A stretch of 64,000 nt of DNA from an uncultured Pseudomonadota bacterium (lineage in GTDB: Bacteria; Pseudomonadota; Alphaproteobacteria; RF32; CAG-239): NCBI GenBank assembly GCA_902785935.1, contig CADAAN010000006.1, forward strand, positions 4,309 to 68,308, in the 5' to 3' direction. Below, one piece after another: positions 9,998-61,613 of the stretch. The notes below the pieces were generated by a model. It made no database searches. It saw only the letters and a list, made by a program, of their open reading frames with translations, and was not told the DNA's origin. Position 1 is the first letter of the stretch; each line of letters starts with the position of its first letter. The position numbers and the translations under genes are program-made.

Positions 9998-12169
9998 TTA
10001 TGCAGCTTTGGAAAGCTCTGATAAAACATCCTTTTTCAAGGTGACGTTATCAACCTTTCCGGTTGCGGACATCGGGATTTTATCCCGATAAATTATCTGG
10101 CGCGGCAGATAAAGCTCAGGATAGCCGTTTTGCTTGATAAATTCACGCAACATTTCGGTATTAAGCGTTTTTTCGTTGGTTACAACAACAATTTGCTCAC
10201 CTTTCTGTTCATGCGGTACGGCTACGACACCACAGCAAAAATCATCTCTACCGGAAAAAGCGCTGTTAATCATATTTTCAACCGCTTTTAATGAAATCAT
10301 CTCACCGCCGACCTTGGCAAAACGTTTGATACGGTCTTTGATCGTGATAAATCCGATTTCATCAATCTCAACAACATCACCTGTGTGATACCAACCGTTG
10401 TGCGGCGGTACCAAAACCCCCGGATTGTCGGCAAAAATATAACCCTTCATCACATTCGGCCCCTTGACCACAAGCTCACCGCCGCGTTCAATACCGTCTA
10501 CTTTTTCAAGACGACATTCCATTCCCGGACAGAGTTTGCCGATGGTGCCGAATTTATTAAATACCATGTTGTTGCCTGCAACAGCCGGAGAACATTCCGT
10601 CGTGCCATAGGCTTCCATCAGACGTGTGCCCAATCGCTCATTTAATAAATTGCGTGTATCAAGCTTGACGCCTTCTGCTCCCGCATAAACAAGCCTTAAT
10701 GACCCGAAATCAAGCGGATGCGAAATTTTGGCATAGCTTCTGAAGAATGTATCCGTACCAATCATCACTGTTGCACTTAATTCATAAAGCAAATCCGAAA
10801 TGACGCGAAAATGGAGCGGAGAGGGGTACAAAAAGACTTTTGCACCTTGATAAAGAGCATAAAGTGTGCCTAATACAAGCCCGAAACTGTGGAAAATCGG
10901 CATTGAATTTAAGACAATATCACGCTTGTTTAAGGTTTCAAAAGTCGCAATTTGCCATACGTTTGAAATCACGTTTTGATTTGACAATACAACGGCTTTC
11001 GGTGCACCTTCCGAGCCTGAGGTAAACAAAATAACGGCTGCATCGTCAGGGGTTGCTTTATATGGCACATATTTGACTTTGTATTGCAATAAGGCCAAAA
11101 TTTTTGCAAAAATCGAAACAGACCGTCCGACTTCTTCTAAAAAAATCACCTCAAATCCGGCATTTGTAATCGCTTCAGCCAGCGGTTCTAATCCCGCTTT
11201 TTTGATAAACATTTTTGATGTAATCACTTTTTTTGCCTGAACGGTTTTAAGCCCGCTTATTACATTCTGTGCACCGGCAGAAAAGTTAATCATGACAGGC
11301 ACTTGTCCATAGGCATTTAAGCCGAAAAATGTGCATATAGCCGCAACGGAATTCGGAAGCATCACGGCAACCGGCTCTTTCTTGTCCGAAATGAGAGAAA
11401 AATGACGCCCCAAAACATACGATGCAAGCATAATATCCTTAAAAGTTTTGGGTTTGCGCGTAATATCTTCCAAAACGTATGGACGACGCAGGCCAAAGCA
11501 TCTCTTTGCATGAATTTTTGAGGCTTTAATCAATTGTGTAAAGACCGTCATTTTTTTATCATAAATCGATTCAAACATTTGCTCACGCATAATCATGTAA
11601 ATTTCATTTGAAATGTGATTACGTTGATGCCTGAGCTCTGCCTTAAGCTTTAAGGGACGGGGTGCGTCAACAACAATTTTGACATGCGGAAAATAACGAT
11701 GCGGTAATTTTCCGCCTGTTTTTGAAAAATGGCAATACTGCAAGCCGTTAATCCAAATCGGTATGACGGGCGAATCCGTTTTATCGGCAAGAAGCCCCGC
11801 TGATTCATAAATCTTCATAATATTACCGTTGGTTGTCATACGTCCTTCCGGAAAAATGACGCAAAGGCGGCCGGAATTAACCGTTGAAATCAAATGCTTT
11901 AAGTCCGGTACGTCAATATTGTCATGTTTGACAACATCAGCCGTTTTTAAAAACAAACGTACCCAATAGTTGCGATAGAGTTGCCCGTGCAATGCAAAAA
12001 CCGGATTGCCGGGTAAAAACGCAAAAAGCACAATCGGATCAACCCATGATACGTGGTTTGAAATATATACGCCCTTTTTGGGAAGTTTATCAACGTCAAA
12101 ACGCATTTCAAAACGAACCTTAAAGGTCTTAAAAAAACATCTTAAAAGAAAGCGAACAATATCGCGCAT
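9998..12169 (-). CDS. aas: Bifunctional 2-acylglycerophosphoethanolamine acyltransferase / acyl-ACP synthetase
   Basis: 723 aa. N-terminal PlsC-type H(X)4D motif (NHVSWVDP) plus an AMP-binding domain (FTSGSEGAPKAVVLS). Same length and architecture as Aas. Confidence 0.8.
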   Translation of the reverse strand: MRDIVRFLLRCFFKTFKVRFEMRFDVDKLPKKGVYISNHVSWVDPIVLFAFLPGNPVFALHGQLYRNYWVRLFLKTADVVKHDNIDVPDLKHLISTVNSGRLCVIFPEGRMTTNGNIMKIYESAGLLADKTDSPVIPIWINGLQYCHFSKTGGKLPHRYFPHVKIVVDAPRPLKLKAELRHQRNHISNEIYMIMREQMFESIYDKKMTVFTQLIKASKIHAKRCFGLRRPYVLEDITRKPKTFKDIMLASYVLGRHFSLISDKKEPVAVMLPNSVAAICTFFGLNAYGQVPVMINFSAGAQNVISGLKTVQAKKVITSKMFIKKAGLEPLAEAITNAGFEVIFLEEVGRSVSIFAKILALLQYKVKYVPYKATPDDAAVILFTSGSEGAPKAVVLSNQNVISNVWQIATFETLNKRDIVLNSMPIFHSFGLVLGTLYALYQGAKVFLYPSPLHFRVISDLLYELSATVMIGTDTFFRSYAKISHPLDFGSLRLVYAGAEGVKLDTRNLLNERLGTRLMEAYGTTECSPAVAGNNMVFNKFGTIGKLCPGMECRLEKVDGIERGGELVVKGPNVMKGYIFADNPGVLVPPHNGWYHTGDVVEIDEIGFITIKDRIKRFAKVGGEMISLKAVENMINSAFSGRDDFCCGVVAVPHEQKGEQIVVVTNEKTLNTEMLREFIKQNGYPELYLPRQIIYRDKIPMSATGKVDNVTLKKDVLSELSKAA

Positions 12170-15957: not shown

Positions 15958-16038
15958 TTTCTTTTGATAAATAAACCCTCAAATTTTGAATGTCAAAGAA
16001 AAATCATCGTTTTTCAGATGTATTTTTAATTTTTTTGT

Positions 16039-16236
16039 TTGACTTTTATTTTAAAGTATGCCATAATCAAAAGCGTAACCAAAATGGTTATGGTGTTTAG
16101 ATAACACATTCGAGTTAAGGCTCCTTTGAAAGAGGAGTTGTTGATATAAGGCAATTTTTGCTCGAATAAGACAAACTGTAACTCGACAGTTATCTAGCTC
16201 CTCCATTTTGAGATTTTTCAAGATGGATTTTTTTTT
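16039..16236 (+). promoter_or_regulatory. Leader family A, copy A1: promoter + ~160-nt structured leader + terminator
   Basis: TTGACT (16039-16044), 17 nt, CATAAT (16062-16067). The conserved GTAACCAAAATGG starts at 16075. Covarying helices are described in the findings. The hairpin TCCATTTTGA/TCAAGATGGA plus T9 ends at 16236, 30 nt before the LRR gene. Confidence 0.7.
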
Positions 16237-16265: not shown

Positions 16266-17324
16266 ATGAAGAAATATGTTTGGGTTTTTGGACTTATTTT
16301 AAGTTATAATGCACAAGCTTATGATTATAATGATTGTTTTGGTGCAAGCGGATGTCAGCCCTGTCCGAATAGTACGGACGGCAAATGTTTTTATGCTGTT
16401 GAAGGCAGCAAAATGACAATTTATGGCCCGACATCAACCGAACAAAATGCAGATGGCAGCTTAAAAGAAACAACATCGATTCCGCGTTATGCCTTTACCA
16501 ACAGCGATAATGCCAGCAATTTGCCGGAAAATATCACTTCTCTTGAAATAACAGGTAATATCACAACCGTTGAAGGTTATGCTTTTTGCTCTGCCCCTCT
16601 GACAAATGTACAATTTCCTGAGACACTTGAAACAATATCGGAATTGGCTTTTTGGAACAATAATTTATCACAAATCAATTTTCCTAATTCGCTTAAAAAT
16701 ATAGAAGAAGGTGCTTTTAATTGGAATCCATTTTCAGAAATTAATTTACCCGACGGATTAATGACGCTGGAGGGGTTAACAGGTGTTCCCCTGGGGCATG
16801 TTGTTATTCCGGATTCGATTGCAGAGGTTAAAGATGCGATTTTTTCTTCAAACTATCGTTTGCAATCATTGGTTGTCGGCGCAGACACAATGCTTGGCAA
16901 TATTTTTACCTACACAACAGGGGCTGTTAGTGTGCAATTTGATAAATTCAAGATGTTTTGCGCAGAAAATAACGGCTCATGCACAACAGCTTTGCAAAGT
17001 GCCGGTGCAACACAAGAACAAATTGCGCAAATACTGATAAGTTATACAAAAGATGACGCAACAGGCGTTTATCAAACAAGTGACGGAAAATATTATGCCG
17101 ATGTCAATTTGATGGCAAGACAAATGGCTTGCGAAAATAAGCAAAGCTGTGAAATTGCCAGTGCTGATATTCGGGCAGGTCGTCCTTTTGATATGAAAGG
17201 AAAATCTTACGCATCTGTCGATGATTTCATTCAAGGAAAATATATTCCAAAGCGTATCTATACCATCGATGAAGCCAATCATGTCGCGGGCAAGACAAAC
17301 ACTTTTACGATTCGGTATCGATAG
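16266..17324 (+). CDS. Secreted BspA-type leucine-rich-repeat protein with conserved C-terminal tag
   Basis: Signal peptide (...SYNAQA-YD), Cys-rich N-terminus, LRR_5-like repeats (ITSLEITGNITTVEGYAF...). C-terminus KRIYTIDEANHVAGKTNTFTIRYR. Confidence 0.85.
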   Translation: MKKYVWVFGLILSYNAQAYDYNDCFGASGCQPCPNSTDGKCFYAVEGSKMTIYGPTSTEQNADGSLKETTSIPRYAFTNSDNASNLPENITSLEITGNITTVEGYAFCSAPLTNVQFPETLETISELAFWNNNLSQINFPNSLKNIEEGAFNWNPFSEINLPDGLMTLEGLTGVPLGHVVIPDSIAEVKDAIFSSNYRLQSLVVGADTMLGNIFTYTTGAVSVQFDKFKMFCAENNGSCTTALQSAGATQEQIAQILISYTKDDATGVYQTSDGKYYADVNLMARQMACENKQSCEIASADIRAGRPFDMKGKSYASVDDFIQGKYIPKRIYTIDEANHVAGKTNTFTIRYR

Positions 17325-20593: not shown

Positions 20594-21493
20594 TTATCTG
20601 TACCTGATTTTGACCGAATTGACTTTGCCTGCGATGGCATTTGCTTCATCGATGGTGTAGATACGCTTTGGGATATAATCTCCTTTTTGCATCGCGGAAA
20701 TTGAGGCATAAGTTTTCTCACCGATACGATATTTCCCGTCAGGTGTCTTAGAATAATGAATAATTTTCGGGTTTTTACCCGTTTGAAGCGCTATTCTTGA
20801 ACATACCTCTTCGGAAGCCGCACAATATAGTTTTTGAAGGTTTGTGTTTGTAAAAGCTTCATCATCAATATTTGTCACACTATTCGGAATAACAAGTGTT
20901 TCAAGTGTTGAAATATCAGCAAGAGACGTCCAACCGATTGAGGTTACACCTTCAGGGATTTCCAGATTTTTAAGTTTTGTTCCGACAAAAGCTCTATCAG
21001 GAATTTCTGTTTGAGCCTGCCCAAGCATCAAATAATCTATTTTTGTTGCCGCAAAACTCCAAGCACCGACATATTGAAGATTTAGAGGTGTATTAATTTC
21101 TTTTAATAAATCTGCACCCTGAAATGCAGCACCGCCAATTTGTTCAATAGAATCCGGCAAATCAATACTGCTGATTTTTGTATAAGCAAGTGTATAACTA
21201 CCGATATTGGTTAAAGAATCCGGCAATGAGACACTTCGAATAGTTTCAAGTTTTTCAACCCATGGTGTTCCCGGCCTTTGGTTTTTAGAATCCCATTCGT
21301 AATTTGTCATTTTTCCGACAGGTGCATTTTCATCTTTGGCTTCAATTGAAAAAAGACCTGTCTGCTCATTTAGTCTGGCAAGGCAATTAGCGCCGCAATC
21401 CCAACAATTGATGTTTAAATCATCACCGCAAGTATTGACTGCTTTAGCTTGAGAGCTCATTGTCAGTAAAAAAAATAAAATCCATTTTCTCAT
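20594..21493 (-). CDS. Secreted BspA-type LRR protein with conserved C-terminal tag
   Basis: Signal peptide (..SSQAKA-VN), Cys-rich N-terminus, LRR_5 repeats. C-terminus KRIYTIDEANAIAGKVNSVKIRYR. Confidence 0.85.
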   Translation of the reverse strand: MRKWILFFLLTMSSQAKAVNTCGDDLNINCWDCGANCLARLNEQTGLFSIEAKDENAPVGKMTNYEWDSKNQRPGTPWVEKLETIRSVSLPDSLTNIGSYTLAYTKISSIDLPDSIEQIGGAAFQGADLLKEINTPLNLQYVGAWSFAATKIDYLMLGQAQTEIPDRAFVGTKLKNLEIPEGVTSIGWTSLADISTLETLVIPNSVTNIDDEAFTNTNLQKLYCAASEEVCSRIALQTGKNPKIIHYSKTPDGKYRIGEKTYASISAMQKGDYIPKRIYTIDEANAIAGKVNSVKIRYR

Positions 21494-21511: not shown

Positions 21512-21711
21512 AAAATAAAAAACCGTTTAAGATAAACCAAAAACGGAGGAGCTAAACGAACTGCACTAAATCAGTTAAGCTTATTCGAGGTATTAACCCT
21601 TATATCACTTACTCCTCTCTAAAGGAGTATATTTTTAGTGCAAGTGTCGTTTAAACACCGCAACCATTTTGGTTACGCTTTCATTTAAGCATATATCAAA
21701 ATACTTGTCAA
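21512..21711 (-). promoter_or_regulatory. Leader family A, copy A2: promoter + structured leader + terminator
   Basis: Minus strand: TTGACA (21711-21706), 17 nt, TTAAAT (21688-21683). GTAACCAAAATGGTTGCGGTG starts at 21676. The terminator CCGTTT/AAACGG plus T-run ends near 21512. Confidence 0.7.
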
Positions 21712-21846
21712 GATGTTTTTAGCCTCTGTCACAATCGGCAACAAAATGTGCATTGATAATTGGGGCTAACGCGGCAATATCAGTTGATATATCTGAAAAT
21801 CATTTTATAATCAGCGTATGTTTTTGAACTTTGGAGAACTTTAAAT

Positions 21847-29406: not shown

Positions 29407-30540
29407 CTAACGATATCGAATCGAGAAGGTGTTTGTTTTGCCCGCCACCTGATTCGCCTCATCGACGGTATAAATGCGCTTGCCCTCATAGCCGATAATC
29501 TTGCCATCTTCATAAATGGCCGTACTTCCATCGGCTAATTTTTTAGAGTATTTAACTGCCATAATGTCAGCAAAGTCATTCGGGTCAAGCCCTGCCGCCT
29601 CAATATTTCTTTGGCACTTAGCGACAGATCCGGCACACTGTATTTCTATGTTGCTTATATCAAGGTTATCGAAAGGAGAATAAATTCTGTCATAACTAAA
29701 AAATACTTCACAGCTATCCATTTCATATGTACAGCCGGCTTCTAAAGCTTTACTATAAAGTTGTGTATAATCTTCTTCGCTCATATGGCTACGGTTATTT
29801 TCTACATTTTCTAAGCTGTAAAAATCATCTTCTATCACATATCTGCTGAATGCAAAATTAAAATCATCTGATACTGTGATTCTTTCAAGATTTTTAATAC
29901 CCTTAAAAGCACCTTCATCAATATACTCAACCGAATCTGGCAATGTAAGGCTTATCAAACCTGACATACCCATAAAAGCATCTCTCTCTATATTTGTAAC
30001 CGAATCCGGAATAGTAAGATTAGTAACGTTTCTCATATACGCAAATGCAGTATCTTCAATATTTTTCAGTGAATTTGGTAAAGTTAAATTTGTAACAGCA
30101 GTAACATCATAAAATGCACCGCTACCGATATCTTCCACCGCATTACCGATTGTTAAATTTGTTACGTTAATCATATTACTAAAAGCACGATCACCAATAG
30201 AAACCACAGAATCTGAAATTTCAATGGATGTAGCATTTGTAGCTTCTCTAAAAGCATTATTTCCAATTGTCGTTATACCTTTTTCTACAACAACAGAGGT
30301 GATATCTTCGCGAATAGCATGCCATGGCATACTGTAATGATACCAACCAGAATAATTCTTATTTTCAAAATCATCCATAGCACCAGTGCCGGAAATAGTC
30401 AAAATACCGCTATCCGTATCCAAGCTCCAATAGCAATTCTCGCCGCATTTTTTGTAGCCGCTGTTTGTACCAATAATATCTGCTTTGACGCCTGAGGATA
30501 ACAAAATAAATCCCATCATCAGAATACATTTATTTTTCAT
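29407..30540 (-). CDS. Secreted BspA-type LRR protein with conserved C-terminal tag
   Basis: Signal peptide (..SSGVKA-DI) and about 7 LRR_5 repeats (TNLTIPDSVTNIERDAFMGM...). C-terminus KRIYTVDEANQVAGKTNTFSIRYR. Confidence 0.9.
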   Translation of the reverse strand: MKNKCILMMGFILLSSGVKADIIGTNSGYKKCGENCYWSLDTDSGILTISGTGAMDDFENKNYSGWYHYSMPWHAIREDITSVVVEKGITTIGNNAFREATNATSIEISDSVVSIGDRAFSNMINVTNLTIGNAVEDIGSGAFYDVTAVTNLTLPNSLKNIEDTAFAYMRNVTNLTIPDSVTNIERDAFMGMSGLISLTLPDSVEYIDEGAFKGIKNLERITVSDDFNFAFSRYVIEDDFYSLENVENNRSHMSEEDYTQLYSKALEAGCTYEMDSCEVFFSYDRIYSPFDNLDISNIEIQCAGSVAKCQRNIEAAGLDPNDFADIMAVKYSKKLADGSTAIYEDGKIIGYEGKRIYTVDEANQVAGKTNTFSIRYR

Positions 30541-30564: not shown

Positions 30565-30864
30565 AATATAAAAAAGTTTAACCGCGCCTTTTTAAGTGCG
30601 GCGGGGAGTGAAGAAATCATGTAAACCTAAATGACTCTTGCAACCTTTAGAATAACTCTTGTACATCCTTTGCAAGCTCCCCAACCAAAACTTTGGGGAT
30701 AATCGGCATTTTATACAAAAACACCTTCAAAACAAACAGTGTTATCCGTCACTGAGGTTTACAAAAGCTTCTTCAAAGCTCCGCACCCAATACATAGGCA
30801 CTAAATGATAAGATTTCTCCCATCACTTAAGATTTATTAGAACACGTTTTGATTTAATTGTCAA
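30565..30864 (-). promoter_or_regulatory. Leader family B, copy B1: promoter + ~255-nt structured leader + terminator
   Basis: Minus strand: TTGACA (30864-30859), 17 nt, TCTAAT (30841-30836). Conserved blocks and covarying helices are shared with 41695-41952 and 61258-61513. A hairpin plus T-run lies near 30571-30606. Confidence 0.7.
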
Positions 30865-37012: not shown

Positions 37013-38119
<1,107 letters not shown>

Positions 38120-38122
38120 TCA

Positions 38123-39226
38123 ATGGCCGGATTTTTTAAAAAACATCTCAAAAATTCTTCGGCGATGAAAAAAAACGCTCCGGCGCCGCATTATGCCGCC
38201 ATCGATTTGGGAACAAACTCTTGTCGTTTGGTGATTGCAACCCCGACCCCGACGTCTTTTCATGTCGTTGAAACTTTTTCGAAAATTACACGCTTGGGTG
38301 AAGGAATTATTAAGGACAATCAACTTTCAAAAGCGGCCATGCGTCGCACGGTCAATACATTAAAAGTCTGTCACAGCGTCATGAGTGAATATGCCCCGAT
38401 TGAAAGCTCGCGTTTTGTTGCAACGGCAGCCTGCAGACGCGCCAAAAATATTGATGAATTTTTAAATATGGTACATAAAGAAGCCGGCATCAATCTGGAA
38501 ATTATTTCACCTAAAGAAGAATCGCGGCTGGCAGTTGTCGGTTGTGTGCCGCTTTTAAACAGGAACATTAAACGCGCATTGATTTTTGATATCGGCGGCG
38601 GTTCGACGGAAATTTCGCTTGCACGCATTACCGAAGACGGCAAAACCTTTATTGAAGGGTATGTGTCTTTGCCTTATGGTGTCGTAACAATTTCAGAAGC
38701 TTTTCCAAATCAGGAAATGACAAGCCTTGCCTATAATACGATTATTGAGCGTACGCAAAATATCTTATCTGAATTTGATGCCAAACACCATATTTTTGAT
38801 GCGATTGAAAATCAAGAAATTCAGGTCATCGGCACATCAGGGACAGTCACGGTTTTGGGTGCGGTGCATTTGGGACTTTCAAGATATAACCGTTCTGCGG
38901 TTGACGGCCTGTCAATTTCAAGGGTGGATATCGAAAATGTCATCAACAAAATCAAAAATATGGGAGATGCCGGCCGGCGCAAGCATCGGTGCATCGGCCC
39001 GTCAAAAGCTGATTTGACAATTTCGGGTTGTGCAATCATTGAAGCTTTGATGACAAGCTTTCCGATATCAGAAATTACGATTGCCGACAGAGGCATCCGT
39101 GAAGGTATTTTGCTTGATATGATTCATAACAAAAAACATCACCAAAAGCCGTTTAAGAAACACTTTAGAAAATATCCGTATTTTAAGAGAAAGAAAAATA
39201 ATGAAAAAAAATATAGCGAGCATTGA
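38123..39226 (+). CDS. Ppx/GppA-family phosphatase
   Basis: AAIDLGTNSCRLVIA and FDIGGGSTEISL motifs (ASKHA fold). Confidence 0.8.
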   Translation: MAGFFKKHLKNSSAMKKNAPAPHYAAIDLGTNSCRLVIATPTPTSFHVVETFSKITRLGEGIIKDNQLSKAAMRRTVNTLKVCHSVMSEYAPIESSRFVATAACRRAKNIDEFLNMVHKEAGINLEIISPKEESRLAVVGCVPLLNRNIKRALIFDIGGGSTEISLARITEDGKTFIEGYVSLPYGVVTISEAFPNQEMTSLAYNTIIERTQNILSEFDAKHHIFDAIENQEIQVIGTSGTVTVLGAVHLGLSRYNRSAVDGLSISRVDIENVINKIKNMGDAGRRKHRCIGPSKADLTISGCAIIEALMTSFPISEITIADRGIREGILLDMIHNKKHHQKPFKKHFRKYPYFKRKKNNEKKYSEH

Positions 39227-40130
39227 TTTAGGATCCAATTCTTGTCGTTTGCGCATTGCAAATGAAAAAGGTGAAGTGCTTTATATGGATTCAAAACCCA
39301 CAATGCTCGGTCAGGGACTTCACAAAACGGGAATACTGAGCGAAGAATCATTCATGCGCGGGCAGAAAGCTTTGAGCGAATTTGCCTGTTTGATGAAAAA
39401 ATATGATGTCAAATCATATCGCGCCATCACGACAGAAGCCTGCAGATCAGCTTTAAACGGCTCTGATTTTATCCGTATGATTGAAAAAGAAACGGGTATT
39501 GTGCTTGAAATAATTGATGCCAAAGAAGAGGCGCGTCTGAATTTAAAAGGAGCAAGCCTCAATGCCCCGAAAGACAAAGAATATATCGCCCTTTATGATT
39601 TGGGCGGTGCTTCGACGGAAATTTCCCTGAGTAAAAATGACGGCAAGTGTCAAATTTTGCACACCGTTTCTATCCCTTGGGGCGCACGCAACGCAGCAGA
39701 AGCATATTGCTTGCGTGAATTTTCGCAGAAACAAGCTCACCGTTTAAGCACGGACATCAAAAAATATGTCGATGATTTTATGAAAAAATGTGATTTTGAA
39801 AAATATCGCGATAAATGCTGTTTGCTTGCAACCTCAAGCACACCTCTTCGCCTTTGCGCCATGGTCAAAAACGACGGAGAATATTCAAGAGACAAAAATG
39901 ACGGTGCATGCGTTATGTGCTTTGATTTTGATAAAGCAATTGATGCGGTGTGCCACATGGATTTACATCAAAGACAGCAATCCGCCTATATCGGCGAGGA
40001 TCGAGCGCCGATTTTTATTGCCGCCGGAATTATTTTTCAGACAATATACAAACAGCTTGGTTTTAATCAGATGATTGTATCATTTAAAGGTGCTCAAGAT
40101 GCGATTATAGAGGAGTTATGCCATGGCTAA
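39201..40130 (+). CDS. Second Ppx/GppA-family phosphatase paralog
   Basis: ASIDLGSNSCRLRIA and YDLGGASTEISL motifs. Overlaps the previous gene by 26 nt. Confidence 0.75.
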   Translation: MKKNIASIDLGSNSCRLRIANEKGEVLYMDSKPTMLGQGLHKTGILSEESFMRGQKALSEFACLMKKYDVKSYRAITTEACRSALNGSDFIRMIEKETGIVLEIIDAKEEARLNLKGASLNAPKDKEYIALYDLGGASTEISLSKNDGKCQILHTVSIPWGARNAAEAYCLREFSQKQAHRLSTDIKKYVDDFMKKCDFEKYRDKCCLLATSSTPLRLCAMVKNDGEYSRDKNDGACVMCFDFDKAIDAVCHMDLHQRQQSAYIGEDRAPIFIAAGIIFQTIYKQLGFNQMIVSFKGAQDAIIEELCHG

Positions 40131-40815: not shown

Positions 40816-41673
40816 TTAGCGATACCGAATCGAAAAAGTGTTTGTCTTGCCTGCAACTTGATTGGCCTCATCGATGGTGTAAATGCGCTTTGGTGCGTAA
40901 TGTTGATTGTAAATATCATTTGGGGAACTGTAAAACCTTCCGTTATAATAATAACCTGTTGAGTATTTTTGATAAAATTTAATTTTATCGCCAATTTCTT
41001 CATCGTCTAAAAGAGCCTGACAACTGGCATTTGTGTCTTCGCAATAAATAGCCAAAGATTCTGACAATGCTTTATTTATGGAATTAGTAAGCATTTTTTT
41101 TGTAATCATGGTCGAACCGGATATGGTTAAAGATTTCAATTCCGTGCCGCCTAATGTCCAATCTTCATCTTCAAGAATAACATCTTTGGGTAATACAATA
41201 TCTTCAACTTTTGTACGATTAAAATTAGCCCCTCCGATAAAAGTCAGACTATTTGGTAAATTAATTTTTTCAAGTGATTGAGTATCATTAAAAGCACCAC
41301 CCGAAATCTTTTGAAGTCCTTCGGGTAAAACAGCCTCTCGCAAATCAAACAAATATTCAAAAGCAGAAGAACCAATTGATTTAAATATTTTATCACTTGA
41401 TTCGTTTTCGATAACGACTTTATAAATTTGTGAAGAATAGGCTCCCCAATCGGCTGTATTATGGCACCATGGGTCACAGCTGTGACTATAATTTTTCATA
41501 TCACCATAACCTTTAATGGTTAATGTATTCGTGTTTTTATCAAGTGTTGCTGTACAACTATCATTTGAGGTTGCCGCACAGTCAAATGTACAAATATCAC
41601 TGTTATCACAAAGTGTATCAGCATATGTATTAAAAGCCGTAAATATACAAAAAATATAAATTACTTTTCTCAT
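40816..41673 (-). CDS. Secreted BspA-type LRR protein with conserved C-terminal tag
   Basis: I placed the true start at ATG 41673 (MRKVIYIFCIFTAFNTYA-DT, with GGAGAA 7 nt upstream). The 67-codon N-terminal extension in the track ORF runs through the conserved leader RNA. C-terminus KRIYTIDEANQVAGKTNTFSIRYR. Confidence 0.85.
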   Translation of the reverse strand: MRKVIYIFCIFTAFNTYADTLCDNSDICTFDCAATSNDSCTATLDKNTNTLTIKGYGDMKNYSHSCDPWCHNTADWGAYSSQIYKVVIENESSDKIFKSIGSSAFEYLFDLREAVLPEGLQKISGGAFNDTQSLEKINLPNSLTFIGGANFNRTKVEDIVLPKDVILEDEDWTLGGTELKSLTISGSTMITKKMLTNSINKALSESLAIYCEDTNASCQALLDDEEIGDKIKFYQKYSTGYYYNGRFYSSPNDIYNQHYAPKRIYTIDEANQVAGKTNTFSIRYR

Positions 41674-41694: not shown

Positions 41695-41987
41695 AAACGA
41701 AAAAACCACTCTAAAATGAGCGGCGGGGAGTAAAAGAATCATGTAATGGAAAATGACTTCCGTAACCTTTAGGTCAAAACCTTGAACATACGCCACGGAC
41801 TCCCCAACCAAAATATCGGGGATAAGCATTGTTTTAAAATAAAAAAACAACACTAAAACAGCGTTATCTCTCACTGTCCATTACAAAAGCTCTTTTAAAG
41901 CCCCGCACCCTTTTCGGGTACTTGATAGAAAAAGCCAAAACCTTCCTATCTGATTTATATTATTACATATCAAAAACATCTTGTCAA
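41695..41987 (-). promoter_or_regulatory. Leader family B, copy B2: promoter + structured leader + terminator
   Basis: Minus strand: TTGACA (41987-41982), 17 nt, AATAAT (41964-41959). Conserved blocks as in B1 and B3. The terminator CCGCTC/GAGTGG plus T5 lies near 41697-41726. Confidence 0.7.
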
Positions 41988-42025
41988 GAAATTTTAAAAT
42001 ATTTTAATACGTGATTTGGCTGTGA

Positions 42026-42213
42026 ACGTAAATAAAAGCTTAGAATGAGCTAGATGCGACGGAAGCTCTTTTACGAAGTGTACAAAAGAGGTTGTATACG
42101 TAAATAAAAGCTTAGAATGAGTCAAGTACGACGTACGGCCGCTTGCGCAGTGTACAAAAAGGGTACATAAGCAAGCGGCCGCACAAGTAATTGGCCATTA
42201 TAAGCTTTTATTT
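42026..42213. repeat. Nested repeat element: 72-bp tandem duplication plus an inverted terminal copy overlapping the nusG stop
   Basis: ACGTAAATAAAAGCTTAGAATGAG occurs at 42026-42049 and 42098-42121. GTGTACAAAA lies 52 nt after each. The inverted copy TAAGCTTTTATTT is at 42201-42213. There is an internal GC-rich hairpin GGCCGCTTGC/GCAAGCGGCC (42137-42180). Confidence 0.6.
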
Positions 42214-45086: not shown

Positions 45087-45986
45087 TTATCGATACCTTA
45101 TTTTGAAAGAATTAACCTTGCCCGCGACGGCATTCGCCTCGTCGATGGTATAAATGCGGATATCGGCACGAGCAGGAACAGATGGCAAGACAGATGGAGA
45201 AACAGTTCCTGATGCTGAAGCAATTTTTGCTCTGCAAGAAGTCTCCGTTTCGCAACCCTCTTCCGTTCCTCCCAACATCATTTTTGCTGCTGAAGAGTAA
45301 TAATTATCACCAACTTTATATACCCCATCTTCTTTAGTATATTGTTCAATTTTTGACGTCCCATGGCCTTTACAAATATTAACATCTTCGCAAAAAAGTT
45401 TTGTGTTGCTGGCAAACGGAAAGTTAACAATTGTTGTTCCTCTGCTAATAATGACATTGTTCAAGGATTCATTTTGAAAGCTACTTCCAAAAGCATCCTG
45501 ATTAATTTTCGTTACACCGCTTAAATCAATATCATGCAGGTTGGTTGTATATGTAAAAGCGCCACTTCCAATTTCTTTAACTCCTGTAAAATCCACACTC
45601 GACAAAGCAGATCGCGAAAAAGCGGTTCCGCCGATTGATGTAACACCGCTTGCAAAAGCAAGTGAGGTTACACCTTGAGGAAGCATTGATGTCCCATAAG
45701 TGTCATCTGCAAAAGCTGATCTCGGTACTTTGTATGTGAGATTGCCGTTTGAATCTGTTGAAGTAATTGATGACCCCTGAATGGTCATTTTTCCGTTATC
45801 AATAGTGTAGTATGTGAGCATATGAGAGGCATAGCTACTGGCTTGCGACAAACATCCTTCGCCATAAGTTGAAACACAAGCCTGACAAAATGTGTTCCCT
45901 TCAGGGCACTCAATTAAAGCAATGGAAATTTTTGAAAATGAAACTGTTGCTACTAATGCCGAGGTTAAAAAAATATTTCTAGTCAT
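45087..45986 (-). CDS. Secreted BspA-type LRR protein with conserved C-terminal tag
   Basis: N-terminal signal-like segment, Cys-rich region, LRR_5 repeats (VTSLAFASGVTSIGGTAFSRS...). C-terminus IRIYTIDEANAVAGKVNSFKIRYR. Confidence 0.85.
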   Translation of the reverse strand: MTRNIFLTSALVATVSFSKISIALIECPEGNTFCQACVSTYGEGCLSQASSYASHMLTYYTIDNGKMTIQGSSITSTDSNGNLTYKVPRSAFADDTYGTSMLPQGVTSLAFASGVTSIGGTAFSRSALSSVDFTGVKEIGSGAFTYTTNLHDIDLSGVTKINQDAFGSSFQNESLNNVIISRGTTIVNFPFASNTKLFCEDVNICKGHGTSKIEQYTKEDGVYKVGDNYYSSAAKMMLGGTEEGCETETSCRAKIASASGTVSPSVLPSVPARADIRIYTIDEANAVAGKVNSFKIRYR

Positions 45987-46020
45987 AACTTTTCTCCTAT
46001 TTTTCTTATTTACACTGTTG

Positions 46021-46212
46021 AAAAAATCACTTCAGAAGATATCCGAAGTGGGAGCTAGAAAACTGTATACATTCAGTCAGACTTATTCGACATTTCAAAA
46101 CGCTTATATCATCTACTCCCGGTAAAAGGAGCGATATGTATAAGGTGTTTTCTAGACACCGCAACCATTTTGGTTACTTTTTTATTTTCACATAAAAAAC
46201 GTAGCTTGTCAA
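46021..46212 (-). promoter_or_regulatory. Leader family A, copy A3: promoter + structured leader + terminator
   Basis: Minus strand: TTGACA (46212-46207), 17 nt, GAAAAT (46189-46184). GTAACCAAAATGGTTGCGGTG starts at 46177. The terminator CACTTCGGA/TTCTGAAGTG plus T6 ends at 46021. Confidence 0.7.
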
Positions 46213-46353
46213 ATAAATTTTGTAAAAAATATCTTTTTTTGCTTGAAAAATAAAACTTTAATGATAAATTGTGCTTGAAATTTAAATTAACCCCCGTGCG
46301 GGGAATCCGCACAGCTCTTTTCTTAAGAGTTTACTTTTTTATAAGGATACTAA

Positions 46354-52252: not shown

Positions 52253-52843
52253 TTAGTAGTCCCCTCTGATTACATGATAAAACCGACAGCTATCTAAACT
52301 TGTTTCACATGCCTGACAGCCCTCAATGATATCAGACATTTTGACCTCCGTAATACCTCCTGTAGGCCAATATATATCCTTACCGCCCACCTCTATCAAT
52401 CCGCCTGTCCACCATTCAACCGGGACGGCATTTTCCCATCCTGCAGAGGCAAAAGCAATACACGATTTTGAATCGGTGAAATGGATAACAAATTCACCCT
52501 GAACATATGAACCACCGCTATCATAAAAATCCATATTCAGCGTTCCTATCGGAAGTTTGCAAGCCTCGTCTCCATTAAGATCCGTTGTTACTTGACAATC
52601 CGGTAAAAGCCCGTATTGAATTAAATCTTCGGCATCACGAATCTCAATACCTTCTCCCCAGCCTTTTTGCTCCAACTCCATAAAGCGTTGAAGAATTTGA
52701 TTATATGTGTCAATTGTTTGATTCATTTTGTATTTAAACATTGCGGCAGAATAACCTTTGAGTGCGCCCGCCGACAACACACCGACAATAGCCAACACGC
52801 CCAGCATTTCAACCATACTTCTACCTATTTCATTAATTTTCAT
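52253..52843 (-). CDS. Type IV pilin / pseudopilin-like protein
   Basis: The N-terminus MKINEIG-RSMVEMLGVLAIVGVLSAG has a prepilin-type signal with Glu at +5, followed by a hydrophobic helix. Confidence 0.75.
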   Translation of the reverse strand: MKINEIGRSMVEMLGVLAIVGVLSAGALKGYSAAMFKYKMNQTIDTYNQILQRFMELEQKGWGEGIEIRDAEDLIQYGLLPDCQVTTDLNGDEACKLPIGTLNMDFYDSGGSYVQGEFVIHFTDSKSCIAFASAGWENAVPVEWWTGGLIEVGGKDIYWPTGGITEVKMSDIIEGCQACETSLDSCRFYHVIRGDY

Positions 52844-52863
52844 TGGTTATACCTTTCTTTCAT

Positions 52864-53061
52864 AAAAAAAATTCCGTTTTATATAACCAAAAACGGAGGA
52901 GCTAACTAACTGCCATTGTACAGCTTGCTTTATTCGCGCATCACTAAAATACCTTATATCAGCAACTCCTCATCAAGGAGCTATACAATGGATGTGTTAG
53001 TTAAACACCGCAACCATTTTGGTTACATCCTGATTATTTCATACAAAAGCATAAAAGTCAA
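52864..53061 (-). promoter_or_regulatory. Leader family A, copy A4: promoter + structured leader + terminator (pilin-like gene)
   Basis: Minus strand: TTGACT (53061-53056), 17 nt, AATAAT (53038-53033). GTAACCAAAATGGTTGCGGTG starts at 53026. The terminator CCGTTTT/AAAACGG plus T8 ends at 52864. Confidence 0.7.
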
Positions 53062-53253
53062 ATACTTTTTTGTACATACAAAAAAAATAAATTTTTTTTG
53101 TAACAAAGTACTTGCAAAATTAAAAAAAATGTATATCATATAAAAAAGTGATGCAGATGTTTTTGATTTTGTCTGCACTTTGTTTCTCATTTTAACGAAG
53201 ATTTTTTTAGTATTAACAAAAGCTGCAAGGCTTTGCTTTTAGGTGTTTAAGGT

Positions 53254-53817: not shown

Positions 53818-54954
53818 ATGAAGGAGAAAATGATGATTTTTTTTATCGGTATGACGATTCTCGTCTTGGCGGCAATTGCGGTTGTTTATAAAACACTGAC
53901 CGGATATATTGATTTTGCATGGTACACAAAGCTTTGTATTTTAGCATTTTTGTTTGTGTCGTGGTTTGCACCGATGTGGCTCAGATGGTTGCGCCACGGA
54001 CCTGATTTTTTGGGCGGGACTTTTTATGATGTTGCCTATAAAGCAGGCTATTTTTTGATGGGTTTTGTGCTGATTTTATCGATGCTTTTAATTGCACGTG
54101 ATATTATTTGGCAAATACTTTACCTGATTGTCAGAAAATCAGCGCTTAATCCGGACAACGCACATCATATCAATATTTTGAACTTTGTTACGATAGCTTT
54201 GGCTCTTGTTATTTCAGGATATGGTGTTTATGAGGCACACAAAACGCCTGTTGTGCAAAATTTGACCATCAAAGACGCACGTATCAGAGAAAAATTAAAA
54301 TTTGTAGCGGCATCTGATTTTCACATCAATCAGTCAACACCCGATTTTCATATCAAAAAAATGGTAGATGTTATCAACGCGCAAAATCCGGATTATATTT
54401 TGCTTGTTGGTGATATTGTTGACGATGACCCTGAATTTACGATCAAAAAATTTGAACAACTCAAAGATTTAAAAGCTCAAAAGATTTATATTTCACTAGG
54501 CAATCATGAGTATTATCACAGACCGTACGCTTGGATTATTGAGTTTGCAAAACTCGGCTTTGAAGTCTTGCAAAATTCGGGCGAAAAAATCAATGGCAGC
54601 GGTATTTATGTTGCTGGTGTGCCGGATGTCGGTTCAACAAATGTCAATTATGAGCGTGCATTTGCCGCATCTGATGAAGATAACTACAAAATTTTGCTGT
54701 CACACGCACCGACCGATTTTAAGGATTTGGATAAGTCAAAGTTAGATATTCAGCTTTCTGGACATACGCACGGCGGGCAAATTTTTCCGTTTCAATACAT
54801 CACCAAAAAAGCAAATGACGGTTATCTTGCCGGTCTTTATGATGAAAAAGATGCCAAAATTTATGTTATGAAGGGTACAGGTTATTGGGGACCTCCGATT
54901 CGTTTGATGTCCGAGCCTGACATTTTGGTCTTAAACTTAGAGCCTGAAGAATAA
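53818..54954 (+). CDS. Membrane-anchored metallophosphoesterase (YkuE-like)
   Basis: 4-5 N-terminal TM helices, then DFH, GDIVDD, GNHEY and GHTHGGQ motifs. Confidence 0.8.
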   Translation: MKEKMMIFFIGMTILVLAAIAVVYKTLTGYIDFAWYTKLCILAFLFVSWFAPMWLRWLRHGPDFLGGTFYDVAYKAGYFLMGFVLILSMLLIARDIIWQILYLIVRKSALNPDNAHHINILNFVTIALALVISGYGVYEAHKTPVVQNLTIKDARIREKLKFVAASDFHINQSTPDFHIKKMVDVINAQNPDYILLVGDIVDDDPEFTIKKFEQLKDLKAQKIYISLGNHEYYHRPYAWIIEFAKLGFEVLQNSGEKINGSGIYVAGVPDVGSTNVNYERAFAASDEDNYKILLSHAPTDFKDLDKSKLDIQLSGHTHGGQIFPFQYITKKANDGYLAGLYDEKDAKIYVMKGTGYWGPPIRLMSEPDILVLNLEPEE

Positions 54955-55373
54955 TGTCATTTGATATCAAACAGGCCATGGATATTGCCTTAAATGAAGA
55001 TGTATCAACATCGCCTGACGGGGCTGTTTTGTATTCTGTCAGTTATCTTAAAACAACAAAAAACAGAGATGATGCGTACGCTTTTGTTCAAAAAAACAAA
55101 GATTGCAAAACACTTGATCATACGCCTTGCGGCAAAGCATTATGTGAAATGGATACTCGGAGAACAAACGACGTTTTACCAGAGGCCGTAAAAGAAGTTT
55201 GGAAAAAAGCATCTCAAAGATTTATTGCCTCCGCATCCGGCAACGTAACAGCTTTTGTTGATGGTGCCGATAAGAGAAGTACGTTTTGCAGCGTTGAAGT
55301 CCCTGCTATCCTAAAAAACAATAAAATCAAAACAATCAACGGTATTGATAAGTTTGAATTTTTGAATAAGTGA
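54954..55373 (+). CDS. Hypothetical protein, translationally coupled to the phosphoesterase (TAATG)
   Basis: 139-aa ORF whose start overlaps the upstream stop. Confidence 0.5.
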   Translation: MSFDIKQAMDIALNEDVSTSPDGAVLYSVSYLKTTKNRDDAYAFVQKNKDCKTLDHTPCGKALCEMDTRRTNDVLPEAVKEVWKKASQRFIASASGNVTAFVDGADKRSTFCSVEVPAILKNNKIKTINGIDKFEFLNK

Positions 55374-55490: not shown

Positions 55491-56090
55491 ATGGAAAAGA
55501 TTAAATCTGCTGTCAATGAAGCAGCGTTTATTCAAAGCGCTGACAGAGAAACTGTCAAGGAGTACATCTCCAGACACCCCCTCCACATAGAAGCTGATAT
55601 CCAGCTCCTTGAACGTGGAGATAAGGAACTTATTAAGCTTTACATCTCGCAGTTTTGCTTTTTGAGCAAGGCTGAAATCAAGCTCATCGAGCTTAAAGAT
55701 AAGGAACTTATTAAGCTTTATATCTCTCGCTGCGGCTTTGAGGATGAGGCCAAAATCAAGTTCCTGGAGATGAAGGATGTGGAGCTGATTAAGTTTTATA
55801 TCTCGAAACGGCCGTTTTTCAAAGCGGACATTAAGTTCCTTGAGCTCGGAAACAAAGAACTTATCGAGCTTTACATCTCGAAGTACAGATTTGAGGCTGA
55901 AGCGGAAATCAAGCTCATCGAGCTTAAAGATAAGGAACTTATCAAGCTTTACATCAAAAATCATCGCCTGAGAGATGATGCTGAGATGAAGCTCCTCGAT
56001 CTGAAGGATATGGAGCTGATTAAGATGTATGCCTTATATCAAGGCTTTTCTGTAAGCACGCAGATAAACATCTGTGAACTTATTGTTTAG
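55491..56090 (+). CDS. Tandem-repeat protein (six ~26-aa helical repeats, consensus AEIKLIELKDKELIKLYISxxxFxxE)
   Basis: 199 aa. There are near-identical 45-50-nt DNA blocks at about 55673-55722 and 55905-55953. GC-rich codon usage. Has its own TTGACA promoter (55420-55425) and terminator. Confidence 0.65.
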   Translation: MEKIKSAVNEAAFIQSADRETVKEYISRHPLHIEADIQLLERGDKELIKLYISQFCFLSKAEIKLIELKDKELIKLYISRCGFEDEAKIKFLEMKDVELIKFYISKRPFFKADIKFLELGNKELIELYISKYRFEAEAEIKLIELKDKELIKLYIKNHRLRDDAEMKLLDLKDMELIKMYALYQGFSVSTQINICELIV

Positions 56091-59299: not shown

Positions 59300-59880
59300 T
59301 TAACGGCTAAAAGCCTTTACCACTTGCAGCCCCTAAACGGGGCTGTTTTGCGTCTGACAGACGCAATCTGTTACTTCCTACCCCTCTGAAAGCTGGTCTT
59401 CCCTTAGTTGTTGTGATATATAGTTTTGTATCTTTTGGCTATCTTTACCTACCATATCCACATAGTACCCTCGACACCAAAATTCTCGATTTCGATATTT
59501 GTACCGCATTTGACACCACTGCTCGTATATCATTACCTTTTAAGAATCCCATAAAACTGGTGGTATCTCTACTAAATGATGTATATGATCCGGATAAGCT
59601 TCTCCTTCTATAATATTTACTCCTTTCCAGCTACATAACTCTTTTAATATTTTTACTATCTCCAGTCTTTTACTTCCGTAAAATACTTTTCTTCTGTATT
59701 TCGGCGCAAATACGATATGGTATTTACAATTCCAGCTCGTATGTGCTATACTTTTTACGTCATTTTTCATGATTAAATTCCTTATGTTTCTTGTTGCGTC
59801 TGCCAGACACTTCTTTCTAACTTAAGGAATTTATTTTTTCCACCCCTCGCTATAAGCTCTTTCGAACTACCAGCCTTGCC
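59300..59880 (-). mobile_element. Decayed IS200/IS605-family element
   Basis: Contains a frameshifted Y1-transposase gene. Subterminal hairpins: TTGCGTCTG-A-CAGACGCAA (59348-59366), CAGCCCC/GGGGCTG (59327-59345) and the related GCGTCTGCCAGAC (59796-59808). A 5'-UTR hairpin AAATTCCTTA/TAAGGAATTT (59775-59832) sits next to the start codon, as in IS200. Confidence 0.7.
59388..59770 (-). pseudogene. tnpA: IS200-type tnpA (Y1 transposase) with frameshifts
   Basis: The N-terminal 76 aa are intact (HTSWNCKYHIVFAPKYRRKVFYG...PDHIHHLVEIPP). The frame then breaks: SFMGFLKG is in the +1 frame, and VMIYEQ...YKYRNREFWCRGYYVDMVGKD is back in the original frame. Confidence 0.8.
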
Positions 59881-59994: not shown

Positions 59995-60609
59995 TTAGTA
60001 GAATTTCCAAGAAACCGTTGCTTGTTCGGTGCATGTAGCTACAGCACCTGTACCCGAAGCTCCGCCCATCGGATAAGGTTTACCCTCATCAGCACCTAGT
60101 ACTTTACCTTTGGCATAATTTGTACCGGTAGAAGCTTCAATTTCTACACCGATAAAACCCGAACCGGCACCCGAACCAAAATCAGCCGTTGCAAGTGCAA
60201 TGCAAGCCTCCTTAGGTAATCCTTTGTAACTGATTACAAAGGCTGTTGGTTTTGCATCACCAGTAATTGCTGTATTGACAGCAGAAATTGTATTTGAAGT
60301 AGCCATAGCTTCTAAAATTTGAACACTTCCTTTAAATGGGTTTGTTAAAGCGGCAGGAGATGTACCCATTACAGGCGGAACAATTCCTAAACTGACAGCT
60401 TGTGTCGCCAAGCCGGCGTAGTTACCCTGCTGTCCATACATTGTTCGGATGTTTGTCACAAGCATTGTGATTTGTTCCATTGTCGTGTTGAGTTTGTGTT
60501 TGAACATCGCTTTTGAATAGCCTGCCAAACCGCCGGCTGACAAAACACCGATAATCGCCAAAACACCAAGCATTTCAACCATTGAACGACCATTTTGATT
60601 ATTCTTCAT
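59995..60609 (-). CDS. Type IV pilin / pseudopilin-like protein (distal gene of pair)
   Basis: MKNNQNG-RSMVEMLGVLAIIGVLSAGG. The first ~65 aa are nearly identical to the upstream paralog. C-terminus ..VSWKFY. Confidence 0.8.
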   Translation of the reverse strand: MKNNQNGRSMVEMLGVLAIIGVLSAGGLAGYSKAMFKHKLNTTMEQITMLVTNIRTMYGQQGNYAGLATQAVSLGIVPPVMGTSPAALTNPFKGSVQILEAMATSNTISAVNTAITGDAKPTAFVISYKGLPKEACIALATADFGSGAGSGFIGVEIEASTGTNYAKGKVLGADEGKPYPMGGASGTGAVATCTEQATVSWKFY

Positions 60610-60648: not shown

Positions 60649-61230
60649 TTAATAGAACTTCCAAATGATTGTGTTTTTTGCACCTGCACAATCACTAACT
60701 GCATCAGCCATTTCATACGCTTTTCCCTCAGCACGTTTGTTTGCAATGCCTGTACCAATGACTATAGAAGATCCATCTGCTGAGGCTGCTGCAGTACCTG
60801 TTTTATCGGCTATAACACCTACAAAACCTGAACCTGCGCCTGAACCAAAGTCAGACGTTGCCAAAGCAATACAAGCTTCTGTTGGTAAACCATCAAAAGC
60901 GACTGTAAATGATTCATTGTTTGTACCTGTAGCAACAATATTAACATTACCCTTAAATGGGTTTGTAAGTGTGGCTCCACTACCCATAACAGCCGGAACA
61001 ACACCAAGACTTGATGCTTCTGTATTTGTTAATCCCGCATAATTTCCCTGTGTGCCGTACATTGTACGGATATTCGTCACAAGCATTGTGATTTGATCCA
61101 TGGTGGTATTGAGTTTGTGCTTGAACATGGCCTTTGAATAACCTGCCAAACCGCCGGCTGACAAAACACCGATGATGGCAAGTACGCCAAGCATTTCGAC
61201 CATACTACGGCCGTTTTCGTTATTTTTCAT
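60649..61230 (-). CDS. Type IV pilin / pseudopilin-like protein (proximal gene of pair)
   Basis: MKNNENG-RSMVEMLGVLAIIGVLSAGG, Glu at +5. C-terminus ..IIWKFY. Confidence 0.8.
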   Translation of the reverse strand: MKNNENGRSMVEMLGVLAIIGVLSAGGLAGYSKAMFKHKLNTTMDQITMLVTNIRTMYGTQGNYAGLTNTEASSLGVVPAVMGSGATLTNPFKGNVNIVATGTNNESFTVAFDGLPTEACIALATSDFGSGAGSGFVGVIADKTGTAAASADGSSIVIGTGIANKRAEGKAYEMADAVSDCAGAKNTIIWKFY

Positions 61231-61257
61231 TTTTCAATTCCTTTTAAAAATTATTAC

Positions 61258-61548
61258 GTAAAACCGCCCCTAAAAGAGCGGTCGGAGAGTTAAACAATCA
61301 TGGATTAGAAAATGACTCCGACAACCTTTAGATTAAAAATCCTGAACATTCGCTACCGGCTCCCCGACACTTTTCGGGGATAATGTGCTATATTTAAAAT
61401 AAAAAATAACACCACATCAATACAGTGTTATCCTCACTGTCTAATCCAAGAGTTGTTTAAAACTCCGCGCCCGTCTCAGGCACTTGATAGAAAAAGTCAC
61501 CTCTTTCTATCCGACCATTATTTAACAACACAAATGCTTAATTGTCAA
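61258..61548 (-). promoter_or_regulatory. Leader family B, copy B3: promoter + structured leader + terminator (pilin-like operon)
   Basis: Minus strand: TTGACA (61548-61543), 17 nt, TTAAAT (61525-61520). Conserved blocks and covarying helices as in B1 and B2. The hairpin CCGC/GCGG plus T-rich tract lies near 61258-61285. Confidence 0.7.
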
Positions 61549-61613
61549 TTAAAAAAAACTATAACTTTAGTCATAGTTTTGCATTTGAACAATGTCTTCA
61601 TCAAATGCAGGCT

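Follow-up and report, generated by a model that had tools for sequence, protein, structure and literature searches.

The 64,000-nucleotide (nt) stretch examined here (contig CADAAN010000006.1, positions 4,309 to 68,308; hereafter the window) belongs to a cattle-rumen assembly of an uncultured alphaproteobacterium and contains three minus-strand copies of a structured 5' leader that we term family B. Situated at 61.5, 41.9 and 30.8 kb (the 61k, 41k and 30k copies), they align over their full length with a mean column identity of 77% and precede differing genes, and they lie where an earlier analysis of the letters alone (the sequence-only reading) had placed them. Judged by sequence comparison, family B is a previously undescribed leader RNA class.

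In the 61k copy (on the minus strand, like all family-B features of the window), the -35 hexamer TTGACA (61543-61548) is followed by a 17-nt spacer and a -10-like TTAAAT (61520-61525), from which we infer a transcription start at about 61513. The leader ends in a predicted intrinsic terminator (61259-61283; ACCGCUCU-UUUA-GGGGCGGU, then UUUU; -11.5 kcal/mol). Downstream lie a gene for a type IVb pilin (Bundlin/PilS) with an N-terminal methylation motif (60649-61230) and, in tandem, a second type IVb pilin gene (Bundlin/PilS; 59995-60609). The 41k copy (41700-41987) comprises a promoter (41982-41987), a leader (approximately 41700-41952) and a terminator (41705-41724), and the 30k copy (30570-30864) a promoter (30859-30864), a leader (approximately 30570-30830) and a terminator hairpin (30581-30602); the genes that follow (40816-41673 and 29407-30540, respectively) each encode a secreted BspA-type leucine-rich repeat (LRR) protein of the LRR_5 family.

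A perfect TTGACA with a 17-nt spacer is present in all three copies, as the sequence-only reading had described, with -10 hexamers TTAAAT (61k), AATAAT (41k) and TCTAAT (30k), although a strict promoter scanner passes the 41k promoter alone (TTGACA-17-AATAAT); that of the 61k copy is rejected because position 2 of its -10 hexamer is T. Homologs described below carry TTGAC(A/T) upstream at a matching distance. These elements indicate a sigma-70-type promoter that drives a leader RNA of about 250 nt. The hairpin and T-run reported at the leader ends were found in every member checked: each of the 21 sequences in our main alignment carries the GC-rich hairpin and U-run of an intrinsic terminator (-4 to -14.6 kcal/mol), but in the 30k copy the U-run sits 6 nt past its hairpin. 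The 41k terminator passes a strict scan, and the 61k terminator, with its 4-U tail, is one U short of it.

Within the window, the 36-nt block CTAAAGGTT-N5-AGTCATTT-N7-CATGATT occurs exactly three times, compared with no occurrence in 100 dinucleotide-preserving shuffles. The minimum free energy (MFE) of the 61k, 41k and 30k copies is -98.5, -93.1 and -89.5 kcal/mol, with z-scores against shuffles of -7.2, -6.9 and -5.8, respectively. A covariance model of the family recovers exactly these three copies (222-249 bits; runner-up match in the window, 14 bits), excluding further family-B copies within the 64 kb.

Distribution and downstream genes

Homologs were first retrieved with a pattern that included the blocks AAAGGTT, AGTCATTT and CATGAT. 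Among GTDB species representatives, an exact-pattern scan yielded four true matches, all in uncultured Alphaproteobacteria (roe-deer rumen metagenome-assembled genome (MAG) RGIG5118, RUG11221 and UBA3773), and a metagenome pattern scan gave four further members. Nearly all proteins encoded downstream of family B carry the same C-terminal signature, approximately 25 residues long, KRIYT[IV][DE]EA..NTFx[IL]RY[RK]; a profile search with this domain returned 115 proteins, every one labelled Alphaproteobacteria, and eight of their contigs were taken for leader search. Using nhmmer, 21 distinct full-length leaders were obtained, and a covariance model built on them (R1) recovers all 21 at 149-271 bits, the next match scoring 29 bits. 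A further two, the divergent L047 and L064, came from a looser pattern applied to IMG/VR only, which brings the total to 23 distinct full-length members (21 in alignments A5 and A7, 23 in A8) from alphaproteobacterial MAGs, rumen and gut metagenomes and IMG/VR contigs. Given that the GTDB and metagenome pattern scans were strict and yielded few matches, the breadth of the family is underestimated, and because the initial pattern contained the AAAGGTT, AGTCATTT and CATGAT blocks, their invariance is partly ascertained; members reached via the protein route retain them with minor changes only.

All 23 members are co-oriented with the next gene and lie 1-154 nt upstream of it, and the leader falls in an intergenic gap in every assembly with gene calls. 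Translation of the region in relatives, which the sequence-only reading had named as evidence against a leader, was looked for in the gene calls of the source assemblies, none of which places a gene over it. A coding or leader-peptide function was also rejected on the grounds that the AUG within CAUGAUU is not conserved (UUG, CUG or GUG in L026b, L028a, L023b and L032); in the 61k copy this AUG meets a stop three codons later.

The putative regulon consists of secreted LRR_5 proteins with a common C-terminus, type IVb pilins and an 826-residue autotransporter. A divergent subgroup of family B precedes SNase/helix-turn-helix (HTH) and YspA-SLOG genes, so the regulon is not made up of surface proteins alone. 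Copy density is high, with three copies in the 64-kb window, three in 20 kb of locus L023, and at least four in the sampled parts of MAG RGIG5118; there appear to be dozens per genome with one common sensor. Leader-bearing genes in the window are scattered singly amid housekeeping genes, with no clustering into islands. The C-terminal motif ends all of the LRR proteins (window sites 29407-29480, 40816-40890, 20594-20665, 45087-45158 and 17250-17324; also the proteins of loci L003, L005, L008 and L028); no Pfam model covers it, and it may serve as a signal for secretion or anchoring.

Several side observations concern the surroundings of individual copies. A 76-residue fragment of an IS200-type Y1 transposase (59540-59770, minus strand) lies directly downstream of the tandem pilin genes in both assemblies that contain the locus. 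Between nusG and the 41k promoter, a hairpin of about 100 nt adjoins a 72-nt tandem direct repeat (42018-42161); the 221-nt region that holds both (41990-42210, minus strand) has an MFE of -64.9 kcal/mol (z -7.0), and the hairpin may be a terminator or an element of the repetitive extragenic palindromic (REP) type. At locus L024 (18737-20582), a large serine recombinase gene (Resolvase/Recombinase) has a family-B leader and LRR gene directly downstream, an adjacency that is probably coincidental, although some copies might conceivably be mobile or subject to phase variation. On the IMG/VR contig L064, a very divergent B-like leader (11322-11603, minus strand; 23.9 bits) retains GGAUCAUUU..GUGAUU and the terminator, and is followed by two small HTH genes; its presence on such a contig means that the family may reach mobile or prophage-like regions.

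Conserved secondary structure

The fold was tested on A5, a MAFFT alignment of 21 members made without structural information, using a structure of 60 pairs (P0, P0b, P1, P2, P3, P4, a pseudoknot, P5, P6 and P6a). Standard pairs account for 95.2% of cells, compared with 79.0% in column shuffles and 40-49% when the 3' partners are slid by one to three columns. Changes on both sides were seen at 43 of 60 pairs (25 shuffled, 11-20 slid), and cells with double-sided changes number 214 (61 shuffled, 19-41 slid). Relatedness among the sequences (a genome carries several paralogs) makes the shuffle controls overstate significance; more weight belongs to the slid-partner control and to the count of distinct pair types. 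In alignments fitted to the covariance model 96% of cells pair, P4 is compensated in divergent members, and the terminator stem covaries. Alignment register is unreliable for P4b and for the outer antiterminator pairs, for which per-sequence folds and tests of cognate against non-cognate duplexes were used instead. The covariation originally noted among the three window copies was strengthened, with no erosion, by the 20 homologs added.

The alignments and folds show an RNA with two 5' hairpins (P0, P0b) followed by a core of about 190 nt, which is closed by stacked P1-P2-P3 around a multi-way junction with arms P4, P4b, P5 and P6/P6a and near-invariant junction and loop nucleotides. In the 61k copy, P0 is an 11-bp hairpin with loop GUGA (61486-61511), present in the MFE fold, in which nine of nine tested pairs changed on both sides and 99.4% of cells pair; P0b (GUGCCUG/CGGGCGC) occupies 61467-61483, with four of six pairs covarying. 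The P1 3' strand CUCC (61284-61287) pairs with GGAG (61463-61466), and P2, four of whose six pairs are compensated, has its 3' strand at 61292-61297. The sensor core proper (61288-61448) contains P3 (61440-61448 with 61301-61309; 9/9 pairs changed on both sides), P4 with loop GGAUAA (61423-61439), the AU-rich hairpin P4b (61384-61422), the sequence UUAUCC (61378-61383), P5 (61362-61379), P6 (61352-61359 with 61318-61325; 8/8 pairs changed on both sides), the conserved P6 internal loop GAAUGUUCA (61343-61351), the P6a stem (61330-61342; 2/3 pairs changed on both sides), the junction AGUCAUUU (61310-61317) and AUGAUU (61296-61301). A conserved sensor fold with covarying helices and invariant junction nucleotides, placed upstream of a gene, is what is generally seen in riboswitches.

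All helices proposed from the three window copies were recovered: the long-range helix is P3, the helix CCGGTA:TTGTCGG is P6, CAGTG..RCTG is P4, CCCCRA:TYGGGG is P5 and GAGTT:AACTC is the hairpin Px, described below. The suggestion that three invariant blocks are unpaired fared less well, in that the GGTT of AAAGGTT forms the P6 3' strand, and AGTCAT and ATGATT are complementary to each other. The resulting AGUCAU:AUGAUU hairpin pairs in 98% of cells, is nearly invariant with a single double change, and is a possible alternative or tertiary contact. RNAalifold pairs GGAUAACA with the P4b 5' strand; we rejected this as the main fold, given that P4 and P4b hairpins appear in nearly all single-sequence folds and that P4 is compensated.

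A contact between the P4 loop and the junction (GGAUAA:UUAUCC), proposed at the outset as a tertiary or pseudoknot interaction, gained modest support, although not proof. It pairs in approximately 90% of cells, changes to GGAUAU:AUAUCC (A-U to U-A at one position) in L032, L047 and L064, and becomes GGGAU:AUCCC in L015. A subgroup (L026a, L028b and L035) has one long hairpin in place of P4/P4b and is without an obvious equivalent of the contact. The pseudoknot is thus plausible rather than proven, its compensation being a single clade-level event.

Mutually exclusive pairings

The 5' strand of P1/P2 can also form a local hairpin, Px (GGAGUU..AACUCU; 61449-61466), which encloses the P1 5' strand GGAG (61463-61466) and whose loop and 3' arm constitute the P2 5' strand (61453-61458). 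Folding predicts Px in every one of the 21 members, with differing pair types, and each arm matches its cognate partner better than the partners in other members (0/5000 permutations as low). P2 covaries independently (C-G in 9 with A-U in 8 at one pair, A-U in 13 with G-C in 5 at another; 0/5000 permutations), and more strongly than Px. As the 6-nt loop of a hairpin cannot simultaneously be a helix of 5-6 bp, Px and P1/P2 are mutually exclusive, and the conservation of both is therefore the signature of a conformational switch. The hairpin GAGTT:AACTC of the sequence-only reading is real in this sense, but it is not a simple hairpin, for it excludes a long-range helix (P2) that had not been listed.

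A further set of competing pairings involves the terminator. The closing helix had been thought to overlap the terminator and exclude it, yet the P1 core (GGRG:CYCC) ends exactly where the terminator stem starts, with neither spacer nor overlap, so that the two can coexist. Competition, in the spirit of that proposal, is instead predicted for a 5-bp extension of P1 (GGGYG:CGCUC), which would first have to displace P0b: the 5 nt located 5' of P1 (GGGYG, the P0b 3' strand) are complementary to the terminator 5' arm CGCUC, and matching variants occur in other members (AAGC:GCUU, AGGC:GCCU and GGGU:ACCU). For transcripts cut before the terminator 3' arm, 14 of the 21 MFE structures have the 5' arm paired to the P0b region, and 11 of the 21 have it paired to the P0b 3' strand over 4 bp or more. 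Cognate duplexes of the P0b 3' strand and terminator 5' arm average -4.63 kcal/mol vs -4.15 kcal/mol for non-cognate ones (46/5000 permutations). These predictions lend moderate support to a relay in which P0b would act as anti-antiterminator, extended P1 as antiterminator, and the terminator as the final element.

Comparison with known RNA families

The sequence-only reading had recognised no known riboswitch or leader class, and this holds. Searched with the 4227 covariance models of Rfam 15 at gathering thresholds, the whole window yielded two tRNAs only, and 11 homologous loci likewise yielded tRNAs only. A permissive scan of 61200-61600 returned, at best, an unrelated model with 17.6 bits against a threshold of 41.2 (E = 1.2). 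The T-box model (RF00230) gave no match to 61200-61600 at E <= 10, and the genes downstream are pilins, LRR_5 proteins and an autotransporter; the cyclic di-GMP (c-di-GMP) riboswitch models, c-di-GMP-I (RF01051) and c-di-GMP-II (RF01786), gave none at E <= 10 in 61200-61600 and none at gathering score in the window and the 11 loci. A known RNA family is thereby ruled out for family B, and the full-text literature searched describes no alphaproteobacterial motif of this kind ahead of LRR, BspA or pilin genes. It is the failure of every curated family to match that sets family B apart as a new class among riboswitch- and T-box-type attenuators.

Parallels with known systems nevertheless exist. 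In Clostridioides difficile, genes for pilins, adhesins and flagella are under the control of the c-di-GMP-I (GEMM-I) and c-di-GMP-II riboswitches. Like family B, these riboswitches are cis-acting 5' leaders with many copies per genome and with terminator-based expression platforms (in family B a predicted one), associated with type IV pilin and surface-adhesin genes, and two unrelated RNA classes serve one gene set, as may be compared with family B and a second leader family (family A) described below. In contrast, the family-B core is about twice as large, has another helix topology, matches neither covariance model, and occurs in an alphaproteobacterial rather than a clostridial host. T-box leaders resemble family B in being multi-helix leaders of about 250 nt with conserved terminator/antiterminator competition (predicted in family B), tens of copies and one architecture with variable helices, but family B has no covariance-model match, specifier loop or T-box sequence, and precedes surface-protein genes rather than aminoacyl-tRNA or amino-acid genes. 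To our knowledge, T-box leaders are essentially absent from Alphaproteobacteria. Protein-dependent parallels are offered by the LicT/SacY-RAT, PyrR and TRAP leaders and by the NusG-paralog (UpxY, LoaP) leaders of surface-polysaccharide loci. The LicT/SacY-RAT system and the UpxY and LoaP/EAR leaders of capsule and exopolysaccharide loci use terminator leaders to gate surface-structure genes, as is proposed for family B, with locus-specific leader families in one genome; they differ in being short (RAT, approximately 30 nt) or processive over long operons, whereas family B has mono- or bicistronic units, a large junction fold and no linked cognate protein gene.

Regulatory interpretation

On balance, we favour, with moderate confidence, the reading that family B acts in cis, as riboswitches and attenuators do, and controls the downstream gene by making intrinsic termination conditional. 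In such a scheme, an effector would stabilise the core and with it the P1/P2 form, P1/P2 would give the terminator 5' arm a toehold for invading P0b, and the extended P1 would then serve as antiterminator, allowing RNA polymerase to read through (ON). Without effector, Px and P0b would persist, the terminator would form, and the RNA of about 250 nt would be released (OFF). The reverse polarity is also possible, and the direction of the switch is a guess, since MFE folds of full-length transcripts hold the core, P0b and terminator together.

Our favoured guess for the effector, by analogy, is a small molecule or second messenger acting as a global signal. This preference follows from conservation sitting in junctions and loops while helices vary freely, from the high copy density with one sensor apparently common to dozens of copies, and from the resemblance of the regulated genes (pili, adhesin-like LRR proteins, autotransporter) to the c-di-GMP regulon of C. 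difficile. A larger proposal, tentative and less likely than not, would make both family B and family A new riboswitch classes that respond to a global signal (such as a cyclic dinucleotide or another second messenger). Together they would govern an extensive regulon, run by RNA alone, of adhesins, pilins and autotransporters in uncultured gut Alphaproteobacteria that may have reduced genomes and depend on partners, with family B operating through a three-tier relay together with Px vs P1/P2.

A number of observations count against conditional termination of this kind. P1 is almost invariant, with one covarying pair (G-C in 10, A-U in 7, A.C in 4 members) and a cognate test that is not significant (1487/5000), so covariation does not prove it. 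The cognate signal between P0b and the terminator is modest and weaker than that of real helices, a control pairing gave 95/5000, and relatedness could inflate it. The antiterminator has only 4-5 bp (in 8 of the 21 members the inner end carries A.C or U.C), and the antiterminator state lies 5-13 kcal/mol above the terminator state, a gap that is as expected for a kinetically controlled switch. The core, P0b and terminator are together in every full-length MFE structure. The size and complexity of the core, about 190 nt, exceed those of most small-molecule aptamers and fit a protein effector equally well, and an unrelated family A stands before paralogous genes for LRR proteins and pilins in the same genomes, a pattern suggestive of two cognate regulators.

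The last two points favour an attenuator that depends on a dedicated RNA-binding protein, either an antiterminator or one that promotes termination, which would read GGAUAAC, GAAUGUUCA, AGUCAUUU, CAUGAUU or P0/P0b and so choose between the P0b/terminator and extended-P1 folds. The structural evidence serves this possibility as well as it does the favoured reading, and the many copies per genome are compatible with it. We consider it the main rival, but rather doubtful: none of the 23 loci has a candidate regulator gene linked to it, their neighbours being unrelated housekeeping genes, the sole NusG in the window is the canonical one beside tRNA-Trp, and conservation that centres on junctions while the helices vary freely is the pattern classically seen in aptamers.

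If instead the terminated RNA of about 250 nt were itself the product, a trans-acting or protein-sequestering small RNA with incidental or secondary read-through (a dual-function leader), this would account for the strong promoter and terminator belonging to each copy, for the terminator state being the thermodynamic ground state in all copies, and for near-identical single-stranded blocks whose dose in the cell would be high, given dozens of copies. It is unlikely, given that every copy is co-oriented and immediately 5' of a gene with no separate promoter-sized gap (1-40 nt in more than half), and that the conserved alternative pairings around the terminator are sensible only under regulated termination. 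A constitutive structured 5' untranslated region that senses nothing, i.e. a stabilising or processing element or fixed leaky terminator spread with its promoter as a cassette during gene duplication, would explain why promoter, leader and ribosome-binding-site spacing are copied as a unit and why most downstream genes are paralogs with a common C-terminal domain, but is very improbable because leaders down to approximately 60-77% identity have kept their pairings through the double-sided changes counted above, and because neither the unrelated downstream genes (pilin, autotransporter, SNase, SLOG) nor two conserved, mutually exclusive folds are needed for a passive element.

If conditional termination by family B is borne out, it would constitute a new regulatory RNA class, large, with a probable pseudoknot, two conserved conformational switches and strong comparative support, that governs the display of surface adhesins and pili in uncultured rumen and gut Alphaproteobacteria. 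It would then join the orphan riboswitch candidates, its gene context suggesting attachment or contact with host or partner and possibly a sensor of a new second messenger; in these bacteria, leader RNAs present in many copies would take the place of linked protein regulators. Such orphan candidates are common, but the comparative support is here unusually clean and the architecture rich. The family-B covariance model can be used to annotate the regulon in metagenomes.

A second leader family and other features of the window

Family A comprises leaders of approximately 190 nt, each with its own TTGACA promoter, a terminator and a repeated CUCC/GGAG competitor motif. Four copies lie in the window, at 16038-16236 (plus strand) and at 21513-21712, 46019-46214 and 52861-53064 (minus strand), where they precede three more LRR proteins with the common C-terminus and a third pilin-like gene (52253-52843); others are found at L024 (9775-9972), L028 (348-542 and 16786-16957) and L005 (107-267). 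The window scan gave no Rfam match for this family either. Although families A and B share promoter type, downstream gene families and MAGs, a relationship between them was rejected, as there is no detectable sequence similarity and nhmmer and covariance-model searches built on B do not match A. The 64 kb therefore hold at least two leader families in seven copies.

At L032 (9756-9992, plus strand), a weak, 29.4-bit match to the family-B model lies upstream of another LRR gene; this different-looking element ends in a terminator, shares CGAAUAAG with family A and may represent a third leader type.

Among the housekeeping context of the window are a CcrM-like N6 DNA methylase with a RAMA domain (37022-38119), two adjacent Ppx/GppA paralogs (38123-40130) and a small open reading frame (ORF; 54954-55373) weakly similar to ADP-ribosyl cyclase. 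At 55591-56033, a 134-nt direct repeat occurs in four copies (69-79% identity; spacings of 78, 153 and 78) inside overlapping ORFs on both strands, and may belong to a gene for a repeat-containing protein.
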